From assembly GCF_000015225.1 (NCBI RefSeq), contig NC_008698.1, positions 960,001 through 992,000 on the forward strand: DNA of 32,000 nt, in the 5' to 3' direction. The position numbers were made by a program, and so were the translations under genes. This document shows, in pieces, positions 2,414-9,421 of this stretch. Source of the DNA: Thermofilum pendens Hrk 5. GTDB lineage: Archaea; Thermoproteota; Thermoprotei; Thermofilales; Thermofilaceae. Each line of letters opens with the position of its first letter. Position 1 is the first letter of the stretch. A model generated the notes under the pieces. The model was not told the DNA's origin and made no database searches. It saw only the letters and a list, made by a program, of their open reading frames with translations.

Positions 2414-3496
2414 CTAGACGTCCGTGACTCCGTCCTCCGTTATCGCGAACGCTACCTCTTTCTCTGCGTGCTTCGGGCTGTCGATTATGCGGGCTATGCG
2501 CTTACCCTCCTTGGCTTTTCTAAGCCAGATCCTGTACGTGCACCCGTGCGCCATTATGTTTCCACCGGCGGGTTTCAGCGGGTTTCCGAAGAATATGTCG
2601 GGCGAAGCCATTACCTGATTTGTCACGACAACCGCTAGGTTGTAGAGGCTCGCGAGCCTGTGTAGCTGGCTTATATGCTTGTTGAGCTTCTGTTGCCTCG
2701 AGGCGAGGTTCTCTCTGCCCGGGTACTCAGCCCTGAAGTGGTTGATGAGGCTGTCGACTATGATTAGCCTGATGTTGTACTTTTCGATGTACTTCTTCGC
2801 CTCGTCTATTAGAAGCATCTGGTGGTCGCTGTTGTAGGCTCTCGCGTATATTATGTTTTCTAGTGTTTTTTCTGGGTCTAGGCCTCTGGCCCTTGCTATC
2901 TGTACTATTCTCTCGGGCCTGAACGTTCCCTCTGTGTCCACGTACAGTGCCCTGGCGTTGAGCCCTCCCTTATCCTTCGGCAGCTGGACCATCACGCTGA
3001 GCTGGTGGCATATCTGAGTCTTACCAGCACCAAACTCCCCGATAAACTCAGTAATACTACCAACCTCAATACCACCCTCAAGCAAATCATCAAGACTACG
3101 AACACCAGTACTGATGTACTCGATGTTCTTCCTCTTCTCGAACAGTGTCTTCGCGGTTATAAACTCCTCTCCCCTGTTCACCAGCCTCTGCGCAGACCTG
3201 ATTATAGCCATGGCTCTTTCCTCGGAGCCGAGGACTAGCGCTAGCTCGTGGGCAGAGGCAAACGCGAGGTCTCGAACAGTGTAGAACCCGGCCGCCCTGA
3301 GCTTCTGGGCCGTTATCCTTCCAACGCCTTCAAGGTCCTCCAGCCTTATCTCTCCCTCGGGTACCTCCTCGGGCGGGGCCTCCGCCGCGGCCTCGCCGAG
3401 GATATCCTCTACTAGCTCGTCTACGTTTACTTCCTCCTCTACCTTTTCCTCCTTCTCCTCTACCTCCTCGGTTTTCGCGCGTTTAGGCATCTTCAA
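2414..3496 (-). CDS. radA: DNA repair and recombination protein RadA, the canonical full-length copy.
   Basis: 360 aa. It has an acidic N-terminal tail, an HhH N-domain ([26 protein letters not shown]), Walker [10 protein letters not shown], Walker B LIIVDSL, and the L2 region [26 protein letters not shown]. Confidence 0.95.
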
Positions 3497-3621
3497 GCAC
3501 TATGAGAACTTCGCGGACCCTCTATTTATACGTTACGATACAGTACACCGAAAGTAAAACTCCGAGCGGAAGGGCTATACGCACGAATAGCTTTTTAACC
3601 CTAGAGGCTGTATTCCGGCAT

Positions 3622-4170
3622 ATGACGGTTGAATACCTGGACTTGAGTTCGATCAGGGAGGGGCTGTGGGTAGTCCTAGACGCCCTTGTAGGGCTTTGGC
3701 GCAGAAAGGGTTACAGGGCGTCCCAAGCGGGCATTCTCTCCGGGATGGGCTTCGACCAGCTTGACCCCTACTTGATAGTGTACGGCTACATTTCCAGAGG
3801 CTTACTGGCGAAGCGTAGTAGTGCCTTCCAGCTTACAAGGGAGGGGCTCGAGGCCCTGACAATAGTATCCGACGTCGCCGAGACGATAAGGGAGGACGCC
3901 GAGTTCCCGGAGTTCGACGGGGGCAAACTGCTGGGGGCAGTCGTGTACGCGCTCTACGACTGGCAGAACAGCTACCCGGGCGCCGAGGAATACCTGAAGT
4001 ACCTCGGGGAAGTCAGGGAGCGGGTAGCGAGGCTGAAGTCGGAGAACCCGAAAGCCTTCAAGCTCGTGGCGATGACTCTTCCCAGGCTGAAGTTCGACGA
4101 GGGATACACGGTTGAAAGGTTGCTAGACGCCGCCGAGAAGGTTGCATTGTCGCACGCGCACCCCTCCTAG
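3622..4170 (+). CDS. Hypothetical protein with a probable N-terminal winged-helix domain.
   Basis: The ORF track gives 3502-4170. I prefer ATG 3622 (MTVEYLDLSS...) because the upstream part crosses the radA promoter region and TTTTTAA sits about 30 nt upstream. A MarR-like segment is present: GYISRGLLAKRSSAFQLTREGLEAL. I recognise no family. Confidence 0.5.
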   Translation: MTVEYLDLSSIREGLWVVLDALVGLWRRKGYRASQAGILSGMGFDQLDPYLIVYGYISRGLLAKRSSAFQLTREGLEALTIVSDVAETIREDAEFPEFDGGKLLGAVVYALYDWQNSYPGAEEYLKYLGEVRERVARLKSENPKAFKLVAMTLPRLKFDEGYTVERLLDAAEKVALSHAHPS

Positions 4171-4236
4171 GCACGCGGTGCCCAGAACTAATCGTAGAAC
4201 ATATGAAGGTGCGGTGCGCAGGAGAACGGGGGAGCC

Positions 4237-5271
4237 TTGAAGAGGCTTAGAACGCTTGAATACGAGGTATTAAAGGCGGCTGTGGTCGCCAGGAGGTACG
4301 TGGACATAGCTAGGAGCACGGGTACCTCGCCTTCCTACGCCGCCCGCGTACTGGCGCGCCTCGAAGAGAAGGGCTTCAGGGTGAGGGGAGGCTTCGACTA
4401 CCGCGTCCTATCACTGCAGGAGACGTTCATACTGGCACCCTACTCGCCCTCCGTCTACGAGAAGGTAGTCCCGTTCGTAGTAGAGAAGGCTATTGTCGAG
4501 CCCTCCAAGAAGAGGAGGCTCATCGCGCTCCGCGTGCTCGTCCCCGTAGGCGCCGCGGAGGAGGTTCTCGACATACTGCAGCTCGAGCCGGAGGTCTTCT
4601 CGGAGGTAGAGCGCTTCACCTGGAACCCCTACGCCTCCCGCGCTACGCGCTTCGAAGCAGGCCTTTTATCCGTGGACCCCGAGGGGCTCTCGGAGCTAGT
4701 GGAGGGGGGCGCGTTCCACAGGCCGAGCCCAGCGGCGCAGCCGATCATTCCCGACGAGGTAGACTTGATGCTCGTAGCCGAGATTACGAGAAACCCCTTC
4801 CTCAAGCTGTCAAAGCTGTCCGCAGAGAGGGGTCTAAGCGGCCAGGTGCTCAGCTACCACTACGTGAAACACGTGAAGAACGCTAGGCTCGACAACGAAG
4901 TGCGCCTCGAAGCCCCCGGTGAAACCCCGGGAAAGCTCTTCGAGGTATACACGCCCCCTGGCTCCGAGGAGCGGGTAGCGTGGGCTCTCTCGAACCTCTA
5001 CTACACGCGGGAAGCCCTGGCGGCGCCCGGCAGGGGCTCTGTCTACGCCTTCACGTACCCGCAACCCTCGGAGGAGGGGGCCCTCTTGGACCTCCTGCGC
5101 AGGCACCCCTTGGTGGAGGATTACGCGTTCAGGGGCTACGTGTACGCCGCGCGGGAATACACGGTACCCTTCGGGGGAGTAGTGGGGGAGGGTGGCTACG
5201 TCCTCGACGCGATGTACGAGGCTCTCTACTCCCGGAGCAGAAAAACCAATTTCATAGTTTACGAGATCTAG
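4237..5271 (+). CDS. Putative transcriptional regulator with two HTH (Lrp/AsnC-like) modules in tandem.
   Basis: 344 aa with a TTG start. The first HTH is LEYEVLKAAVVARRYVDIARSTGTSPSYAARVLARLEEKGF. The second is DEVDLMLVAEITRNPFLKLSKLSAERGLSGQVLSYHYVKHV. Each is followed by a beta-rich segment. The assignment rests on motif resemblance only. Confidence 0.45.
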   Translation: MKRLRTLEYEVLKAAVVARRYVDIARSTGTSPSYAARVLARLEEKGFRVRGGFDYRVLSLQETFILAPYSPSVYEKVVPFVVEKAIVEPSKKRRLIALRVLVPVGAAEEVLDILQLEPEVFSEVERFTWNPYASRATRFEAGLLSVDPEGLSELVEGGAFHRPSPAAQPIIPDEVDLMLVAEITRNPFLKLSKLSAERGLSGQVLSYHYVKHVKNARLDNEVRLEAPGETPGKLFEVYTPPGSEERVAWALSNLYYTREALAAPGRGSVYAFTYPQPSEEGALLDLLRRHPLVEDYAFRGYVYAAREYTVPFGGVVGEGGYVLDAMYEALYSRSRKTNFIVYEI

Positions 5272-5708
5272 TAGGTACAGGGGTCTTCGCGCAACCCATC
5301 CCTGCACTTCAGCTCTTTAGCGAGCTCGCGTGCCAGCGAGTCCAGGTAGGCTGCCTCCATGGGGGCGAGTTTCAGGCGCGTAACCAGGTAGAAGATGGGG
5401 AAGAGCAGGGCTTCGCGTAACCCCCACCTGGCGAAGACGAACACGGCGAAGGGCTCCCACACGGCGAGGACGTAGCCTAAGGGAAGCCTGCAGAACGAGA
5501 CTTCTTCGTGCACGCGCTCGAGGAGCTCGCAGGGGAACGAGTATCTATCCTTACCGCACCCCCTCCTCAGCGACTCGTAGACCCGCCTAGCCTCCTCCTC
5601 GGGCATCTCGCTCAAGGTCTCGAAGCGCTCGCGCTCGAAGCAGTCGTCAAGCCACTCCCAGAAAACGGAGGACCTCAAACCGTACTCGCCGAGCAACACC
5701 CACCTCAT
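5268..5708 (-). CDS. Hypothetical protein (146 aa) with a central hydrophobic segment.
   Basis: This is the ORF-track ORF. It has its own TATA-like GTTATAAGG on the minus strand about 30 nt upstream of ATG 5708. I recognise no motifs. Confidence 0.4.
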   Translation of the reverse strand: MRWVLLGEYGLRSSVFWEWLDDCFERERFETLSEMPEEEARRVYESLRRGCGKDRYSFPCELLERVHEEVSFCRLPLGYVLAVWEPFAVFVFARWGLREALLFPIFYLVTRLKLAPMEAAYLDSLARELAKELKCRDGLREDPCTY

Positions 5709-5788: not shown

Positions 5789-5820
5789 GAAAACGGAACG
5801 GGAAGAAAAACGGGTTTTTA
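5789..5820 (-). terminator. Oligo-T tracts (minus strand) immediately downstream of the 5828 stop; probable end of the RadA-paralog operon.
   Basis: The minus strand reads ...CTAAAAACCCGTTTTTCTTCCCGTTCCGTTTTCAC. T5 and T4 runs are the usual archaeal termination signal. Confidence 0.4.
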
Positions 5821-5827
5821 GGGGTGT

Positions 5828-6175
5828 TCAGCCTTCCTCCGCGATCTTGTTGAGCTCGCTCTGCACTATCGCCGGCATGACTATGGTGAACAGCCAGAAC
5901 ACGAGGAAGTAGAGCACTGCCGACTCCTTCTTCGTCACCTGCGCGAAGCCCTCGGCGTACTTGTAGAGCCAGTAAATGTTCGCTATGGGGATTATGATGA
6001 GCCAGCACGTCGGTATGCGCGCTCCGAGCGCGTTGAGCTCCCTCTTCGTCCAGACGAGCCAGAGGTAGAAGTAGACGCCGAACGTTAGAAAGATGAGCGC
6101 GTAGACCTTCAGCAGGCTCCTCTTCTCCGGCACTTTTTTCTGACCGGGGGTCGTTGCGCCCATACGGTTCAACAC
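5828..6175 (-). CDS. Small integral membrane protein, DUF4234-like.
   Basis: 115 aa with about 3 hydrophobic helices. The motif [22 protein letters not shown] resembles the GIYxxxW...EL signature I associate with DUF4234. Confidence 0.55.
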
Positions 6176-6202
6176 CTGCTCCGGGTCCGTATAAACCCAC
6201 CG

Positions 6203-6673
6203 CTACGTCGCGCGCAACGCGTCGAGGGCTAGTGCCTCCCAGTCTTTTACCTCGACCTCGCCGGAGGGCGTCTTGAGGCGTACCGACGGCTTGGTTGCAA
6301 AGTTGAGCTCTACGAGTAAGCCGTAGAGCGCCGCCTGCACCCTTTCCGCGCGCTTAACCGTGTCGTAGCTCTTCACCTCGTAGACCGCGACCGGCCTAGC
6401 TTTAACGAAGCGCACTAGGTCGGCGACACCGACGAGCCAGCCGAAGCGGAAGCGCCAAGCCAGGGGGAGCGGCGTCCACGCCTCCTCGAGCTCTAACACC
6501 CAGTCGAGGTCGCCCCAGAGCCTGCTGTGGTACTCTAAGCCGTGCTCCCTGCCGAGCCCCCTGCCGGGCGCAAGCCTAGACGAGACGCGCGTCACCGCTA
6601 CCCTAGGCTCCCCGGACACCAGCGCCCTCTCGAACCTCGCCAGGGCGCGGGACAGTAGCCTGTACTCCCTCAA
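6203..6673 (-). CDS. PD-(D/E)xK nuclease, RecB/Cas4-like, without the Cas4 Cys cluster.
   Basis: 156 aa. The TTG start is 3 nt after the RadA-paralog stop. Ordered motifs are GREHGLEYH, GVAD(85)LV, YE(99)VK(101)S and Q(113)AALY(117). Confidence 0.55.
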   Translation of the reverse strand: MREYRLLSRALARFERALVSGEPRVAVTRVSSRLAPGRGLGREHGLEYHSRLWGDLDWVLELEEAWTPLPLAWRFRFGWLVGVADLVRFVKARPVAVYEVKSYDTVKRAERVQAALYGLLVELNFATKPSVRLKTPSGEVEVKDWEALALDALRAT

Positions 6674-6676
6674 GGC

Positions 6677-7624
6677 TTAAACGTCACCCAGACCGTCGTC
6701 CCTTATCTCGAACTGCGCCGTCGCCCCCTTGGGTAGCCTCGGCGAGTCGAGAACCTCGATCAGCCACGAGTCCCCCGCCTTCTTCATGAGGAACCTGTGG
6801 GTGGAGGCGTGGGCGATTATGTTGCCGCCCGCCGGTAGCTTCACGGCTACGCCCCAGTTGCTCGGGACCGAGACTACCTGGTTCGTGATTACGACTACTA
6901 TGCTGTAGACCCTGGCGAGCCTCTTCAACCAGTCCAAGGCGTAGTTGATCCGTTGCTGCCTCATCGCGAGCCACTCGCGCCCCCTGAACTGGGCCCTGTA
7001 CAGCGCGATCACAGAGTCTATCACTACGAGCTTCACGCCGCCCTTGAGCAACGGCTTCAACCCCTTTATGACGAGCTCCTCCAGCTCGTCGACGCTGATA
7101 GGCCTCGCCACGTAGACTCCCTCCAGCGCTCCCTCCACGCCGAACCTCTCGGCGATCCTCTCTATCCTCGACGGGCTAAACGTCCCCTCGGTGTCCACGT
7201 AGACAACCTTGCCGCCGAGACCGCCCCGGCTCGGCGGTAGCTGCGCTGTGACTGACAGCTGGTGGCAGAGCTGGGTCTTCCCGGACCCGTACTCCCCGGC
7301 GAACTCGTAGATCTCCTGGGTTACGAGGCCCCCCTCTAGCAGCTCGTCCAGCGCCTTAACGCCCGTGGTGAGGGACTCCCGCTGAGAGAGTTGCGAGGCG
7401 TACTCGTCGCCCCTCACCGCCCTTACCTCCCAGCCCGCCAGCCGCCTAGCGGTCCTCACGAGCCTGAGCGCTCTCTCGAAGTCTATGCCGGCGAGCTCCT
7501 CGAGCTCCTCCGGGTTGTAGAGCACGAGGTCCTCCACGGTCTCTATGCCGGCGCTCTTCAGCCTGGAGATCGTGACCCTCCCTATGCCCTCCTCCTTCCC
7601 CAGCTCCTCAATAGGGATAGGCAT
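6677..7624 (-). CDS. Second full-length RadA-like recombinase (RadA paralog).
   Basis: The track ORF is 6677-7732. I start at ATG 7624 (MPIPIEELGKEEGIGRVTISRLKSAGIETVEDL) because this aligns with the HhH N-domain of the canonical RadA. Walker A is GEYGSGKTQ, Walker B is LVVIDSV, and the L2-like region is NQVVSVPSNWGVAVKLPAGGNIIAHA. Confidence 0.85.
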   Translation of the reverse strand: MPIPIEELGKEEGIGRVTISRLKSAGIETVEDLVLYNPEELEELAGIDFERALRLVRTARRLAGWEVRAVRGDEYASQLSQRESLTTGVKALDELLEGGLVTQEIYEFAGEYGSGKTQLCHQLSVTAQLPPSRGGLGGKVVYVDTEGTFSPSRIERIAERFGVEGALEGVYVARPISVDELEELVIKGLKPLLKGGVKLVVIDSVIALYRAQFRGREWLAMRQQRINYALDWLKRLARVYSIVVVITNQVVSVPSNWGVAVKLPAGGNIIAHASTHRFLMKKAGDSWLIEVLDSPRLPKGATAQFEIRDDGLGDV

Positions 7625-8177
7625 GGGGCTCACCGCACGGCTCGCCGTCCACGAAGCAAGCCCTCTCGGGGCCCTCTCGTATGCACGCGAACCTCCTGGC
7701 GTACCTCCAAAGCCCCTCCGTCTCCTCGTCACCGTACACTACGACGGGCACCCTGTAGACGCGGGCAACCCTCGAGAGTATGTCTAGCGCGTACAACACC
7801 CCCTCCCGGGCCCACCTGGTAAACCTCCTCGGCATATCCTCGACCACCACGGGCGCCCTCGCGCCGTCCAGCTCCCGGGGAAGGTCGAAGAGCAGGTACT
7901 CCAGGAACTCCTCGTCGAGGTACTCCGGGACGTAGGTACACCTCGGCACGGAGAGCGAGGCACCCCTCACGTGCGTTATGCCCGGTGGTAGCGAGTACCT
8001 GTTTCCGCAGAACTCGACCTCCACGGATAGGGGGCTGGAGAAGACGACGGTAGCCTCCGCCACCCTTGCCAGGTCCTCGGCTACCTCGCCGAATATCTCC
8101 TCCAGCTCTTCGCGCCGAAACACCTTCAAGTGCCTCCTCGAGAACGTCTCGCTACCCACGACTATCGTCTCGCTCAT
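7608..8177 (-). CDS. Hypothetical protein (189 aa), possibly a degenerate P-loop-less RecA-core-like protein.
   Basis: Its ATG overlaps the upstream wHTH stop (ATGA at 8174-8177), and its 3' end overlaps the RadA-paralog start by 17 nt. The segment APVVVEDMPRRFTRWAREGVLYALDILSRVARVYRVPVVVYGDE resembles the Walker B strand, helix and next strand of RadA. No GxxxxGK(T/S) is present. Confidence 0.5.
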   Translation of the reverse strand: MSETIVVGSETFSRRHLKVFRREELEEIFGEVAEDLARVAEATVVFSSPLSVEVEFCGNRYSLPPGITHVRGASLSVPRCTYVPEYLDEEFLEYLLFDLPRELDGARAPVVVEDMPRRFTRWAREGVLYALDILSRVARVYRVPVVVYGDEETEGLWRYARRFACIREGPERACFVDGEPCGEPHAYPY

Positions 8178-8575
8178 GCCGACACCCTCGGCCTAACCTT
8201 CTCCGCGAGAACCTTGAGCCAAGGATTATCCCTCGCGAAGCTCGGGAGCTCCGCGCCGGCAACTTCCGGCTCAGCCTCTTCTACGGGCTCCCCGGCGGGG
8301 CCCTCGCCGTACACAACCCTCTTCGCCATCTCTAGGTACCTGTACACCTCCAGCCCCTTGGGGCTGAGAGACACTATGCGTAGCCTGCCCTTCCGGCTTT
8401 CCCTGACGAGCCCGTACTTGGAGAGAAGGCTTATGACCTCCTTGGCCTTCTTCGTGTTCCTGGAGATCTCCGTGGCCAGAACCTCGGAGCTCCCTATCCT
8501 GTTGACCCACATAACTATGCGCGTGAATTCGTCCACGAGTATTCGCGGGAAAAACAAGTATAAATTCGTTTCCAT
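8174..8575 (-). CDS. Winged-helix transcriptional regulator; first gene of the RadA-paralog operon.
   Basis: 133 aa. The wHTH core is SSEVLATEISRNTKKAKEVISLLSKYGLVRESRKGRLRIVSLSPKGLEVYRYL, followed by an acidic/Pro-rich C-terminal tail. An alternative start is ATG 8512 (MWVNRIG...). Confidence 0.6.
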   Translation of the reverse strand: METNLYLFFPRILVDEFTRIVMWVNRIGSSEVLATEISRNTKKAKEVISLLSKYGLVRESRKGRLRIVSLSPKGLEVYRYLEMAKRVVYGEGPAGEPVEEAEPEVAGAELPSFARDNPWLKVLAEKVRPRVSA

Positions 8576-8603
8576 GGAGTAAAACTAAGTTATACGAGAA
8601 GGC

Positions 8604-8610
8604 AAATATT
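8604..8610 (+). promoter_or_regulatory. TATA-like box AAATATT for tmk, with leaderless geometry.
   Basis: It lies 29 nt upstream of GTG 8633, in a 57-bp divergent intergenic region shared with the wHTH operon. Confidence 0.4.
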
Positions 8611-8632
8611 CGCGCGTCTGTTTTGGGGCTCT

Positions 8633-9421
8633 GTGTCTGAAGGCTTAAGAGAGAGGGTGTTCTGCCCGAAGTGCGGCGACTACGTGAAGCCGAGGGTTGA
8701 GCGCTCGATAACGCCTACGGGGGAGCTGGTCATAGAGTACCACTGCCCCGTGCACGGGTTGCTCGAGACGGAGAAGAGGAGGATCTTCGGAGATAACAAG
8801 TCGAGGGTCGACGGGGGGCTCTACGTGGCTCTCGAAGGGATAGACGGGAGCGGGAAGACTACCCAGGCGGCGATGCTCTACGAAAAGCTCTCGGCGGAGG
8901 GGTTCCAGGTAGTGATAGTGCGGGAGCCCTGGGTTCCCGCGATAAAGGAGTTCCTCTACAAGCACGACCTAGACGTCGAGGCCGAGGTCTACCTCTTCGC
9001 CGCGGACAGAATAATCCTGCAGCGCGAAGTCGTGCTCCCATCGCTGAGAGCGGGAAAGATAGTGGTATCCGACAGGTCTGTCTTCGCGAGCCTAGCGTAC
9101 CAGTCCTCGAGGGGCGCGGACCAGGACTTCATACTCGCGGTAAACAAGTCCGTGAGGTTCCCCGACGTGGTCGTACTGCTGGACCTACCCGTCGAGGAGG
9201 CTATGAAAAGGCTTTCCTCGCGCGTAGCGCAGACACGCTTCGAGGACCCAGGGTACATGGAGAAAGTCCGCGCGAAGTACCTCCAGCTCGCCGAGGAGTA
9301 CCCCGAAAAGTTCATCGTAGTCGACGCCTCCAAGCCCCCGGAGGAGGTTAACCGCGAGATACTCAGGGAGATAGTAAGCATCGTGCGCTCAAGGATACGA
9401 AGCGAACCGGGAGAACGGTAG
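8633..9421 (+). CDS. tmk: Thymidylate kinase with an N-terminal zinc-ribbon extension of about 60 aa.
   Basis: The P-loop is LEGIDGSGKTTQ and SDRSVFASLAYQ is the DRY/H-like motif. The N-terminal extension carries C11-x2-C14 ... C38-P-V-H41. An in-frame GTG at 8825 could give a conventional short form. Confidence 0.85.
   Translation: MSEGLRERVFCPKCGDYVKPRVERSITPTGELVIEYHCPVHGLLETEKRRIFGDNKSRVDGGLYVALEGIDGSGKTTQAAMLYEKLSAEGFQVVIVREPWVPAIKEFLYKHDLDVEAEVYLFAADRIILQREVVLPSLRAGKIVVSDRSVFASLAYQSSRGADQDFILAVNKSVRFPDVVVLLDLPVEEAMKRLSSRVAQTRFEDPGYMEKVRAKYLQLAEEYPEKFIVVDASKPPEEVNREILREIVSIVRSRIRSEPGER

Follow-up and report, generated by a model that had tools for sequence, protein, structure and literature searches.

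A four-gene operon around a second full-length RadA in Thermofilum pendens, a candidate accessory recombination module

The four-gene operon and its promoters

We analyzed a window of 32,000 nucleotides from the genome of Thermofilum pendens Hrk 5 (contig NC_008698.1, positions 960,001 to 992,000 of the forward strand), in which a group of closely packed minus-strand genes includes a second full-length member of the RadA recombinase family, here called RadA2. All coordinates given below are positions within this window. An earlier note, made from the sequence alone, had described the group as a self-contained operon of five genes, which encode a winged helix-turn-helix (wHTH) protein, a RecA-like protein without a P-loop, the RadA paralog, a RecB/Cas4-like nuclease and a DUF4234 membrane protein. 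The open reading frames (ORFs) lie where that note had placed them. The same is true of the ATGA overlap of genes 1 and 2 (8174-8177), the 17-nt overlap of gene 2 and RadA2 (7608-7624), the gaps of 3 nt (RadA2 to nuclease) and 27 nt (nuclease to the DUF4234 ORF), and the oligo-T tracts at 5789-5820. The conserved operon is smaller than proposed and has four genes, all on the minus strand. They code for the wHTH protein (gene 1, 8174-8536 from its probable GTG start), a 189-aa protein predicted to have a RecA/Rad51 fold (gene 2, 7608-8177), RadA2 (gene 3, 6677-7624, inside a longer ORF at 6677-7732) and a predicted 156-aa PD-(D/E)xK nuclease (gene 4, 6203-6673).

The unit is limited to these four genes because the DUF4234 gene (5828-6175, minus strand, probable start at ATG 6163) is absent from every related locus. 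It does not follow the nuclease gene in any of the loci L001 to L013, where the next gene is either a homologue of orf344, a neighbor described below, or unrelated. Among the related loci, the DUF4234 gene and the adjacent 146-aa ORF (5268-5708, minus strand), which has no family match and lies between it and orf344, were found only in T. pendens. As the DUF4234 gene also has a TATA-like box of its own, the five-gene operon was rejected. The assignment to DUF4234 itself held up, with a score of 27.4 bits against PF14018 (cut-off 25.3).

The order wHTH, 189-aa protein, RadA2 and nuclease recurs in Infirmifilum lucidum, in one Infirmifilum metagenome-assembled genome (MAG) and in several Thermofilum/Thermofilaceae MAGs, and the neighbors of the operon are conserved in more than ten loci. 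The flank shared on one side consists of the dTMP kinase gene (tmk, with an MFS transporter in its place in some loci) and genes for PLD, ThiN, AlaX and methyltransferase proteins. On the other side it consists of orf344, which encodes an HTH_24 protein, orf222 and canonical radA. The operon is usually 3-4 kb or less from canonical radA across the syntenic Thermofilum and Infirmifilum loci, and the two are separated by a few kb in L002, L003, L004, L006, L009 and L011. In T. pendens, canonical radA occupies 2414-3496 on the same strand as RadA2 and is 3.2 kb from the operon, much as the earlier note had stated (3 kb). Since both the gene order and the flanks are the same, the operon was inherited with the chromosome. 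Conservation of the neighborhood had been proposed as a check on the original description, and the synteny in Thermofilum and Infirmifilum shows that the arrangement is not due to chance. The distribution is undercounted, since we scanned the GTDB genomes for the nuclease profile by one peptide pattern only, which yielded 8 loci. In a word-indexed search, the 189-aa protein had 19 homologues and the nuclease 71; most of them are unnamed metagenome sequences, and all those with a taxon name belong to Thermofilum or Infirmifilum.

The probable promoter of the four-gene operon is a TATA-like box, TTTATA, at 8559-8564 on the minus strand. The earlier note had extended gene 1 up to ATG 8575, which gave a winged-helix regulator of 133 aa, and had assigned the promoter to an AT-rich region at 8576-8632. 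The most likely start is GTG 8536 (120 aa), because the homologues begin at the same GTG-GAC-GAG. With this start, the box is 22 nt upstream of the gene and hence within the ORF as originally drawn. TTTATA is also found 21-22 nt ahead of the GTG-GAC-GAG start in L001, L002, L007 and L009, with the T. pendens spacing of 22 nt in L001 and L007. The promoter is thus not restricted to the stretch 8576-8632, whose GC content is 44%. A second TTTATA, at 6190-6195 on the minus strand and 26 nt ahead of ATG 6163, probably gives the DUF4234 gene a promoter of its own. The hexamer occurs 10 times in the window, with 3.2 occurrences expected, and is absent from the minus strand between 6196 and 8558, that is, inside genes 1-4. 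The oligo-T tracts at 5789-5820 (minus strand), which lie past the DUF4234 gene and read ...CCCGTTTTTCTTCCCGTTCCGTTTTC, are a likely archaeal terminator, and there are no such tracts between genes 1 to 4. This layout fits a single leaderless or nearly leaderless transcript of genes 1-4 and a separate start for the DUF4234 gene. In four species (L001, L002, L004 and L009), a near-palindrome, AACATTGTT or AACAATGTT, is located just upstream of the operon box. For the wHTH protein, this would be a candidate operator; the T. pendens window shows no evident copy of it.

RadA2 and its P-loop-less neighbor

With its 315 aa, RadA2 shares 43% identity with the product of canonical T. pendens radA. Like the nuclease, it matches a T. 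pendens database entry at 100% identity. Its Pfam matches (Rad51, PF08423, E = 1e-67; HHH_5, E = 1e-8) correspond to an N-terminal helix-hairpin-helix (HhH) domain and a RecA core, and its best match among PDB sequences is S. solfataricus RadA (2e-63). RadA2 scores 287 bits on the RadA model NF003301 (cut-off 259) and 263 bits on TIGR02236 (cut-off 361), whereas canonical T. pendens RadA exceeds both cut-offs with 483 and 452 bits. On NF003301, RadA2 proteins reach 267-313 bits and canonical copies 411-483 bits. It is because its NF003301 score is just over the cut-off that RadA2 is named 'RadA' by the Prokaryotic Genome Annotation Pipeline (PGAP). More than 119 protein clusters hidden under this plain annotation form a clade of their own, which we divide into five subclades (i-v). 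RadA2 is not a RadB or KaiC-type protein by profile either: it obtains 113.5 bits on the RadB model TIGR02237, below the cut-off of 172.4, at most 32 bits on the KaiC_arch models (cut-offs above 240), and less than 35 bits in all KaiC-type matches. The best 120 database matches are all of the RadA2 type, with identities of 53-100%, and those that carry a taxon name are all from Thermofilaceae, Thermoproteales or Thermoprotei.

The earlier note had recognized a full-length paralog that retains the HhH domain, Walker A and B and an L2-like loop, and this description applies to the clade as a whole. Depending on the motif, 110-119 of the 119 members have the core residues, as counted for Walker A (GxGKTQ), DTEGTF, Walker B, TNQ, PAGGN and the DSP ATP cap. 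In L1, the first and last arginines and RQQ are invariant, and the middle arginine is found in 59/119.

What the clade has lost is the polymerization motif. RadA polymerizes by inserting an invariant phenylalanine into a pocket of the next monomer (PMC5480776). None of the 119 full-length members of the RadA2 clade has an FxxA motif in the linker or a phenylalanine at the polymerization column, which is occupied by phenylalanine in 64 of 103 diverse RadA/Rad51 representatives used for comparison. The aligned element of RadA2 is [AV]-[VFY]-x-[GA]; RFKTA of Sso RadA aligns with RAVRG of T. pendens RadA2, and canonical T. pendens RadA carries FxxA as EFITA. The acceptor side may have changed as well. 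After strand beta3, the canonical YNSDHQ is replaced by xVDELE, a stretch that, by our own mapping onto human RAD51, would presumably contribute to the acceptor pocket.

Between species, identity is 72% for RadA2 and 79% for RadA (orthologues of L004 and L002). Judged by these values, RadA2 is under strong purifying selection and nearly as conserved as RadA. In order to place the paralog, we used a crude neighbor-joining (NJ) tree with Kimura distances and 200 bootstraps, in which RadA2 was sister to Thermofilaceae RadA in 0/200 replicates. RadA2 alone never formed a clean bipartition, as three more divergent proteins (P0215, P0225 and P0231) intruded, and RadA2 joined with these three reached 89%. 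The position of radA on the same strand 3.2 kb away is what a recent, strain-specific tandem duplication with chance neighbors would produce, and a phylogeny of the paralog had been proposed in the earlier note as a check on this very point. We reject such a duplication as virtually out of the question, given the 43% identity, the size of the clade and its five subclades, the conserved neighbors and the bootstrap result. For the same reasons we consider RadA2, on sequence evidence, to be an old, full-length and not strain-specific paralog, which may predate the Thermofilaceae.

The intruding P0225 is a cluster of 150 members, one of which is named as a Pyrobaculum sp. MAG protein. This Pyrobaculum protein has 311 aa, lacks FxxA and shares ALYRA and xYxxDWLRR with RadA2. 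Its 191 bits on NF003301 (cut-off 259), together with the missing FxxA, led us to reject it as the canonical RadA of Pyrobaculum. The entry of this cluster at L018:5001-5936 (P0378) combines GKS in Walker A with DVP at the position of the DSP cap, and its gene adjoins that of a ParA/CbiA-type ATPase, with no nuclease gene there.

The 189-aa product of gene 2 had been described as RecA-like without a Walker A motif, and the structure prediction bears this out. Sequence searches were of little help. The protein has no match in Pfam, NCBIfam, PHROG or PADLOC, and its profile found among PDB sequences only a marginal match to RadB (E = 1.3) and a spurious one to HisF. The AlphaFold2 model, built from a 19-sequence alignment, has a mean predicted local distance difference test (pLDDT) score of 92.4, and its best 47 PDB matches in Foldseek are all Rad51, Dmc1 or RadA structures (E from 1.5e-4). 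The Walker A pattern [GA]xxxxGK[ST] is found in 0/19 family members. By its predicted structure, gene 2 is thus a RecA/Rad51-fold protein without a P-loop.

A comparison of profiles by hhalign points to the origin of this protein. Gene 2 matches the RadA2 profile with 79% probability (E = 1.6e-5, 31% identity), and the canonical RadA profile in the same region with 17.5% probability and 15% identity. Because the match to RadA2 is the better one, gene 2 appears to derive from RadA2 rather than from RadA. Residues 93-154 align to the helix, Walker B strand, L1, helix and strand of RadA2, with YALDILSRVARVY of gene 2 opposite YALDWLKRLARVY of RadA2. The L1 stretch is a 9-residue gap in this alignment, and the L2 region, compared by eye, is much shorter (about 12 residues for about 28). 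A 116-aa version of gene 2, which corresponds to the C-terminal half only, precedes RadA2 in one subclade ii genome. Our reading of the alignment is that gene 2 would be a degenerate duplicate of RadA2 that lost its ATPase and DNA-binding loops and was kept as a structural partner. It is thus a putative ATPase-dead partner of RadA2, with which we infer that it interacts.

The nuclease, the wHTH protein and the wider RadA2 clade

Gene 4 was correctly identified in the earlier note as a RecB/Cas4-type nuclease without a cysteine cluster. Family profiles recognize it just below their thresholds or well under them: PDDEXK_1 with E = 2e-4 and 21.8 bits (cut-off 22), and the Cas4 model TIGR00372 with E = 4.5e-4 and about 20 bits (20.1; cut-off 65). 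The ordered RecB motifs GxhD, hhExK and QhxxY are present, and all 36 sequences compared have H49, D85, E99, K101, Q113 and Y117. The T. pendens protein contains no cysteine, and family members have 0-6, none of which is conserved. The gene 4 family profile gave nothing useful against PDB sequences. The AlphaFold2 model (pLDDT 88) has its best PDB matches in SSO0001 Cas4, Cas4-Cas1-Cas2, the DinG nuclease domain, MGME1, AdnAB and Exo5. Among the scanned proteins of the window there are no cas families beyond the sub-threshold Cas4 matches, and the window has no CRISPR-like array. From its motifs and predicted fold, gene 4 is a minimal RecB/Cas4-family PD-(D/E)xK nuclease without an Fe-S cluster, whose catalytic activity is predicted.

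The product of gene 1 has weak wHTH matches in Pfam. A profile of 7 homologues matches MarR-family, AF_1382 and AspA wHTH structures with E-values of 1e-3 to 2e-2, by which we classify the protein as a winged-helix DNA-binding protein, the part of the original description that stands. A C-terminal NPWL motif is present in 6 of the 7 aligned homologues, and gene 1 is directly upstream of gene 2 in L001, L002, L004, L007, L009 and L014.

Outside the four-gene arrangement, the composition of the locus varies. In subclade ii, the wHTH gene and the short gene 2 accompany RadA2, and no nuclease gene adjoins them. Subclades iii and v have RadA2 and the nuclease without genes 1 and 2, and subclade iv has RadA2 alone. 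RadA2 and the nuclease are the most persistent pair, being found together in subclades i, iii and v. The persistence of this pair was missed in the earlier note, as were the clade-wide loss of FxxA and the apparent derivation of gene 2 from RadA2. In three loci of subclades iii and v, the pair is adjoined by genes for SWIM zinc-finger proteins of 125-144 aa with the motif CxC...CxHxxA (L012:6442-6819, L013:2258-2680 and L010:2587-3021, all on the minus strand). This motif is the signature of Shu2/SWS1, partners of Rad51 paralogs (PMC6316741). Among the ORFs of at least 60 aa in the T. pendens window there is no SWIM homologue.

One MAG contains two copies of the nuclease (L008 and L010), and Infirmifilum sp. 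SLHALR2 (CP182482) has two diverged subclade v copies of the pair, at about 1.11 Mb (L019) and about 0.60 Mb (L020). In SLHALR2, the block encodes, besides RadA2 and the nuclease, a ParB_N protein, a wHTH protein, a P-loop ATPase of 203-210 aa and a Zn-ribbon/wHTH protein of 227-229 aa. One copy is embedded in ORFans that share one orientation over more than 20 kb, and the other has genes for a HerA-like DUF87 ATPase and a TnpB-like protein as neighbors. Both blocks resemble variable islands or mobile elements that have integrated.

Several features of the neighboring genes may be recorded here. The pair orf222 (3502-4170) and orf344 (4237-5271), at 3502-5271 on the plus strand, is conserved between radA and the operon; its homologues lie between radA and the nuclease gene in six loci (L002-L004, L006, L009 and L011), and both genes may belong to the same recombination neighborhood. 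The product of orf222 has no family match and its gene is divergent from radA, with TTTATA at 3525-3530; orf344 matches HTH_24 in Pfam with 5.8e-6. In L002, L004 and L009, radA and orf222 form a pair whose orientation with respect to the operon is reversed. Rather than the 146-aa ORF, L002, L004, L009 and L011 have an unrelated gene of 154-155 aa beside radA. The 5' end of radA contains an 18-nt imperfect tandem repeat (3.2 copies, 3416-3469), which encodes the Glu/Lys-rich N-terminal extension of canonical Thermofilaceae RadA; RadA2 does not have it. The dTMP kinase encoded divergently from the operon (8633-9421, plus strand) is extended at its N-terminus by about 60 aa, which include a zinc-ribbon-like CxxC...CxxH motif, and L001 has an orthologue of similar length (258 aa).

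Proposed function and relation to known systems

We propose that the four-gene operon is a vertically inherited accessory homologous-recombination module of the Thermofilaceae, a reading to which we give a probability of roughly 55% on the basis of sequences and predicted structures. It is suggested by the stable site beside radA and nucleotide-metabolism genes, by the strong purifying selection on RadA2, and by the lack of a match to any defence system. In such a module, the Cas4/RecB-like nuclease would process DNA ends or gaps and expose 3' single strands; its gene being adjacent suggests that the module prepares its own single-stranded DNA (ssDNA) substrate. RadA2, with its ATPase, DNA-binding loops and ATP cap intact, would bind the exposed ssDNA. 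As it lacks the phenylalanine 'ball' of FxxA, it could not use this contact to lengthen a filament of the canonical RadA type. RadA2 and the ATPase-dead 189-aa protein would instead form a heteromer like Rad55-Rad57, Csm2-Psy3 or RFS-1/RIP-1, and this heteromer could nucleate, cap or stabilize canonical RadA filaments, or itself pair DNA in a specialized pathway. The wHTH protein may regulate the operon or tether the complex to DNA. The earlier note had mentioned both a recombination-repair pathway and a module directed against or derived from mobile genetic elements. We lean towards repair and recombination over an anti-mobile-element role, in view of the syntenic housekeeping context and of the PADLOC scan, in which no defence system was recovered.

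Several observations weigh against this proposal. The Foldseek scores are moderate for both gene 2 (TMq 0.34-0.59) and the nuclease (TMq 0.36-0.52). The interaction of RadA2 with gene 2 rests on adjacency, co-occurrence and apparent common descent. The parts of the operon are separable, since subclade ii has no adjacent nuclease gene and subclade iv has RadA2 alone. Finally, the conserved [AV]-[VFY]-x-[GA] that stands in place of FxxA might still support self-polymerization.

An unlikely explanation, yet one that accounts for part of the data, is an autonomous exonuclease and recombinase module of the mobile-element type, captured by or exported from the Thermofilaceae chromosome and comparable in function to lambda Exo/Beta, RecET or the rudiviral nuclease and annealing-ATPase genes. 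RadA2 would then work independently of canonical RadA, its task being, for example, element maintenance or recombination-dependent replication. The persistence of the RadA2-nuclease pair, its two copies in the ORFan-rich islands of SLHALR2 with their ParB_N, HerA-like and TnpB-like genes, and the duplicated nuclease of one MAG would all be expected of such a module, and RadA2 has every catalytic and DNA-binding motif that an autonomous recombinase would have. However, the T. pendens-type operon occupies a stable syntenic housekeeping context by radA in many species, and the window has no tRNA gene and no integrase signature. IMG/VR contains no relatives of the nuclease, of RadA2-signature proteins or of gene 2, and the PHROG matches are generic ones to RecA-superfamily phage families (UvsX-like recombinase, DnaB-like helicase). 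The missing FxxA also argues against ordinary filament formation.

It is rather doubtful that the nuclease acts late, as a structure-specific endonuclease that cuts RadA2 joint molecules in the manner of an Hjc-type resolvase, and not in resection. Its small size and D...E-V-K core would also fit minimal PD-(D/E)xK endonucleases, and the TM-scores to Cas4 are within the low range given above, but the invariant QxxxY and the best structural matches (Cas4, MGME1, AdnAB and Exo5) are those of the RecB/Cas4 exonuclease family, and no Hjc or Hje structure is among the best 50 Foldseek matches. We find it very improbable that the operon defends against viruses or plasmids by means of a recombinase-like ATPase and an effector nuclease. 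Defence systems do commonly combine a nuclease with an ATPase and a wHTH protein, copies are present in islands of Infirmifilum sp., and there are weak PADLOC matches of RadA2 to mad8 (2.2e-7) and of gene 1 to a CARF-wHTH model (1e-3). These matches, however, are generic P-loop or wHTH matches, so that a known defence system finds no support in the scan. Furthermore, the site is a conserved one by radA and tmk instead of a variable island, and RadA2 has the full set of recombinase motifs, including L1, L2 and the HhH domain.

Returning to the accessory recombination module, we compared it with the systems it most resembles. The earlier note had been aware of no described counterpart of the gene set, and our full-text literature searches, whose coverage leaves out many subscription papers, likewise found no description of a second full-length RadA, of this gene set or of the 189-aa family; a phylogenomics paper on Cas4 does not mention RadA. 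The operon is probably a variant of RadA/Rad51-paralog systems that has not been described before. The 189-aa family, not covered by any Pfam or NCBIfam model, now has a fold and a likely origin, and SWIM proteins with the Shu2/SWS1 signature are linked to archaeal RadA paralogs. As the four-protein set is small, defined and thermostable, it could make paralog-assisted filament control testable in vitro.

The rudivirus SIRV2 has an operon for an ssDNA-binding protein, an annealing ATPase and a Cas4-like nuclease. In this operon, as in lambda Red and RecET, a nuclease gene stands by that of an ssDNA-pairing ATPase, and some RadA2-nuclease pairs are located in mobile-looking islands. Unlike the viral modules, the present one has a true RadA-family ATPase, has no homologues in IMG/VR and, in T. 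pendens, is chromosomal and syntenic. The nuclease by itself resembles Cas4/RecB nucleases (SSO0001, AddB, AdnAB, MGME1 and Exo5) in the order of GxhD, ExK and QxxxY and in its predicted fold. It differs from Cas4 in that it has no four-cysteine Fe-S cluster, is about 40-50 residues shorter, and is encoded in a window without cas genes or CRISPR.

In its domain order (HhH, linker and RecA core) and in Walker A/B, L1, L2 and the ATP cap, RadA2 is like canonical RadA/Rad51. It is unlike it in the absence of FxxA and of the acidic N-terminal extension, in the xVDELE stretch, and in falling under the TIGR02236 cut-off. Moreover, wherever the contig is long enough, RadA2 is always a second copy beside canonical radA. 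RadB and aRadC have no N-terminal HhH domain, and we know of no description of either with a pseudo-ATPase partner and a Cas4-like nuclease. RadB is a core-only, euryarchaeal protein of about 210-240 aa, whereas RadA2 comes from a crenarchaeon, retains the HhH domain in its 315 aa and falls below the RadB cut-off. The aRadC/KaiC-like paralogs are also core-only and differ from RadA2 in the same domain. RadB of Euryarchaeota and aRadC/SsoRal1 of Crenarchaeota are the only two kinds of archaeal recombination mediators described, and RadA2 is like them in being RadA-derived, both of them being proposed or shown to be mediators of RadA (PMC5480776).

The closest likeness is to the eukaryotic Rad51-paralog complexes, namely Rad55-Rad57, the Shu complex (Csm2-Psy3-Shu1-Shu2/SWS1), RFS-1/RIP-1 and BCDX2/CX3, where a RecA-fold paralog and a more degenerate RecA-fold subunit occur alongside a bona fide recombinase, a pairing that is inferred for RadA2 and gene 2. 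Csm2 and Psy3 are Rad51-like and have no working ATPase. PDB entries show Rad51-paralog complexes capping RAD51 filaments, and two entries, 9q29 and 9svx, are among the Foldseek matches of gene 2. Csm2-Psy3 consists of Rad51 paralogues (PMC3632125), and the Shu complex has a further parallel in the SWIM proteins with CxC...CxHxxA that accompany RadA2 in sister subclades. In contrast to these complexes, the T. pendens set comes from a prokaryotic operon, which also includes a dedicated nuclease and a wHTH protein, and in RadA2 neither the N-terminal HhH domain nor any of the DNA-binding loops is missing. We put forward only tentatively that RadA2 and its ATPase-dead partner, joined in sister lineages by a Shu2/SWS1-type SWIM protein, might be an archaeal counterpart of the eukaryotic Rad51-paralog/Shu complexes, encoded in an operon with an end-processing nuclease of its own and capping or nucleating canonical RadA filaments via an interface that no longer uses FxxA. 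If this were true, the operon would represent a prokaryotic, genetically compact prototype of the recombinase-paralog mediators.

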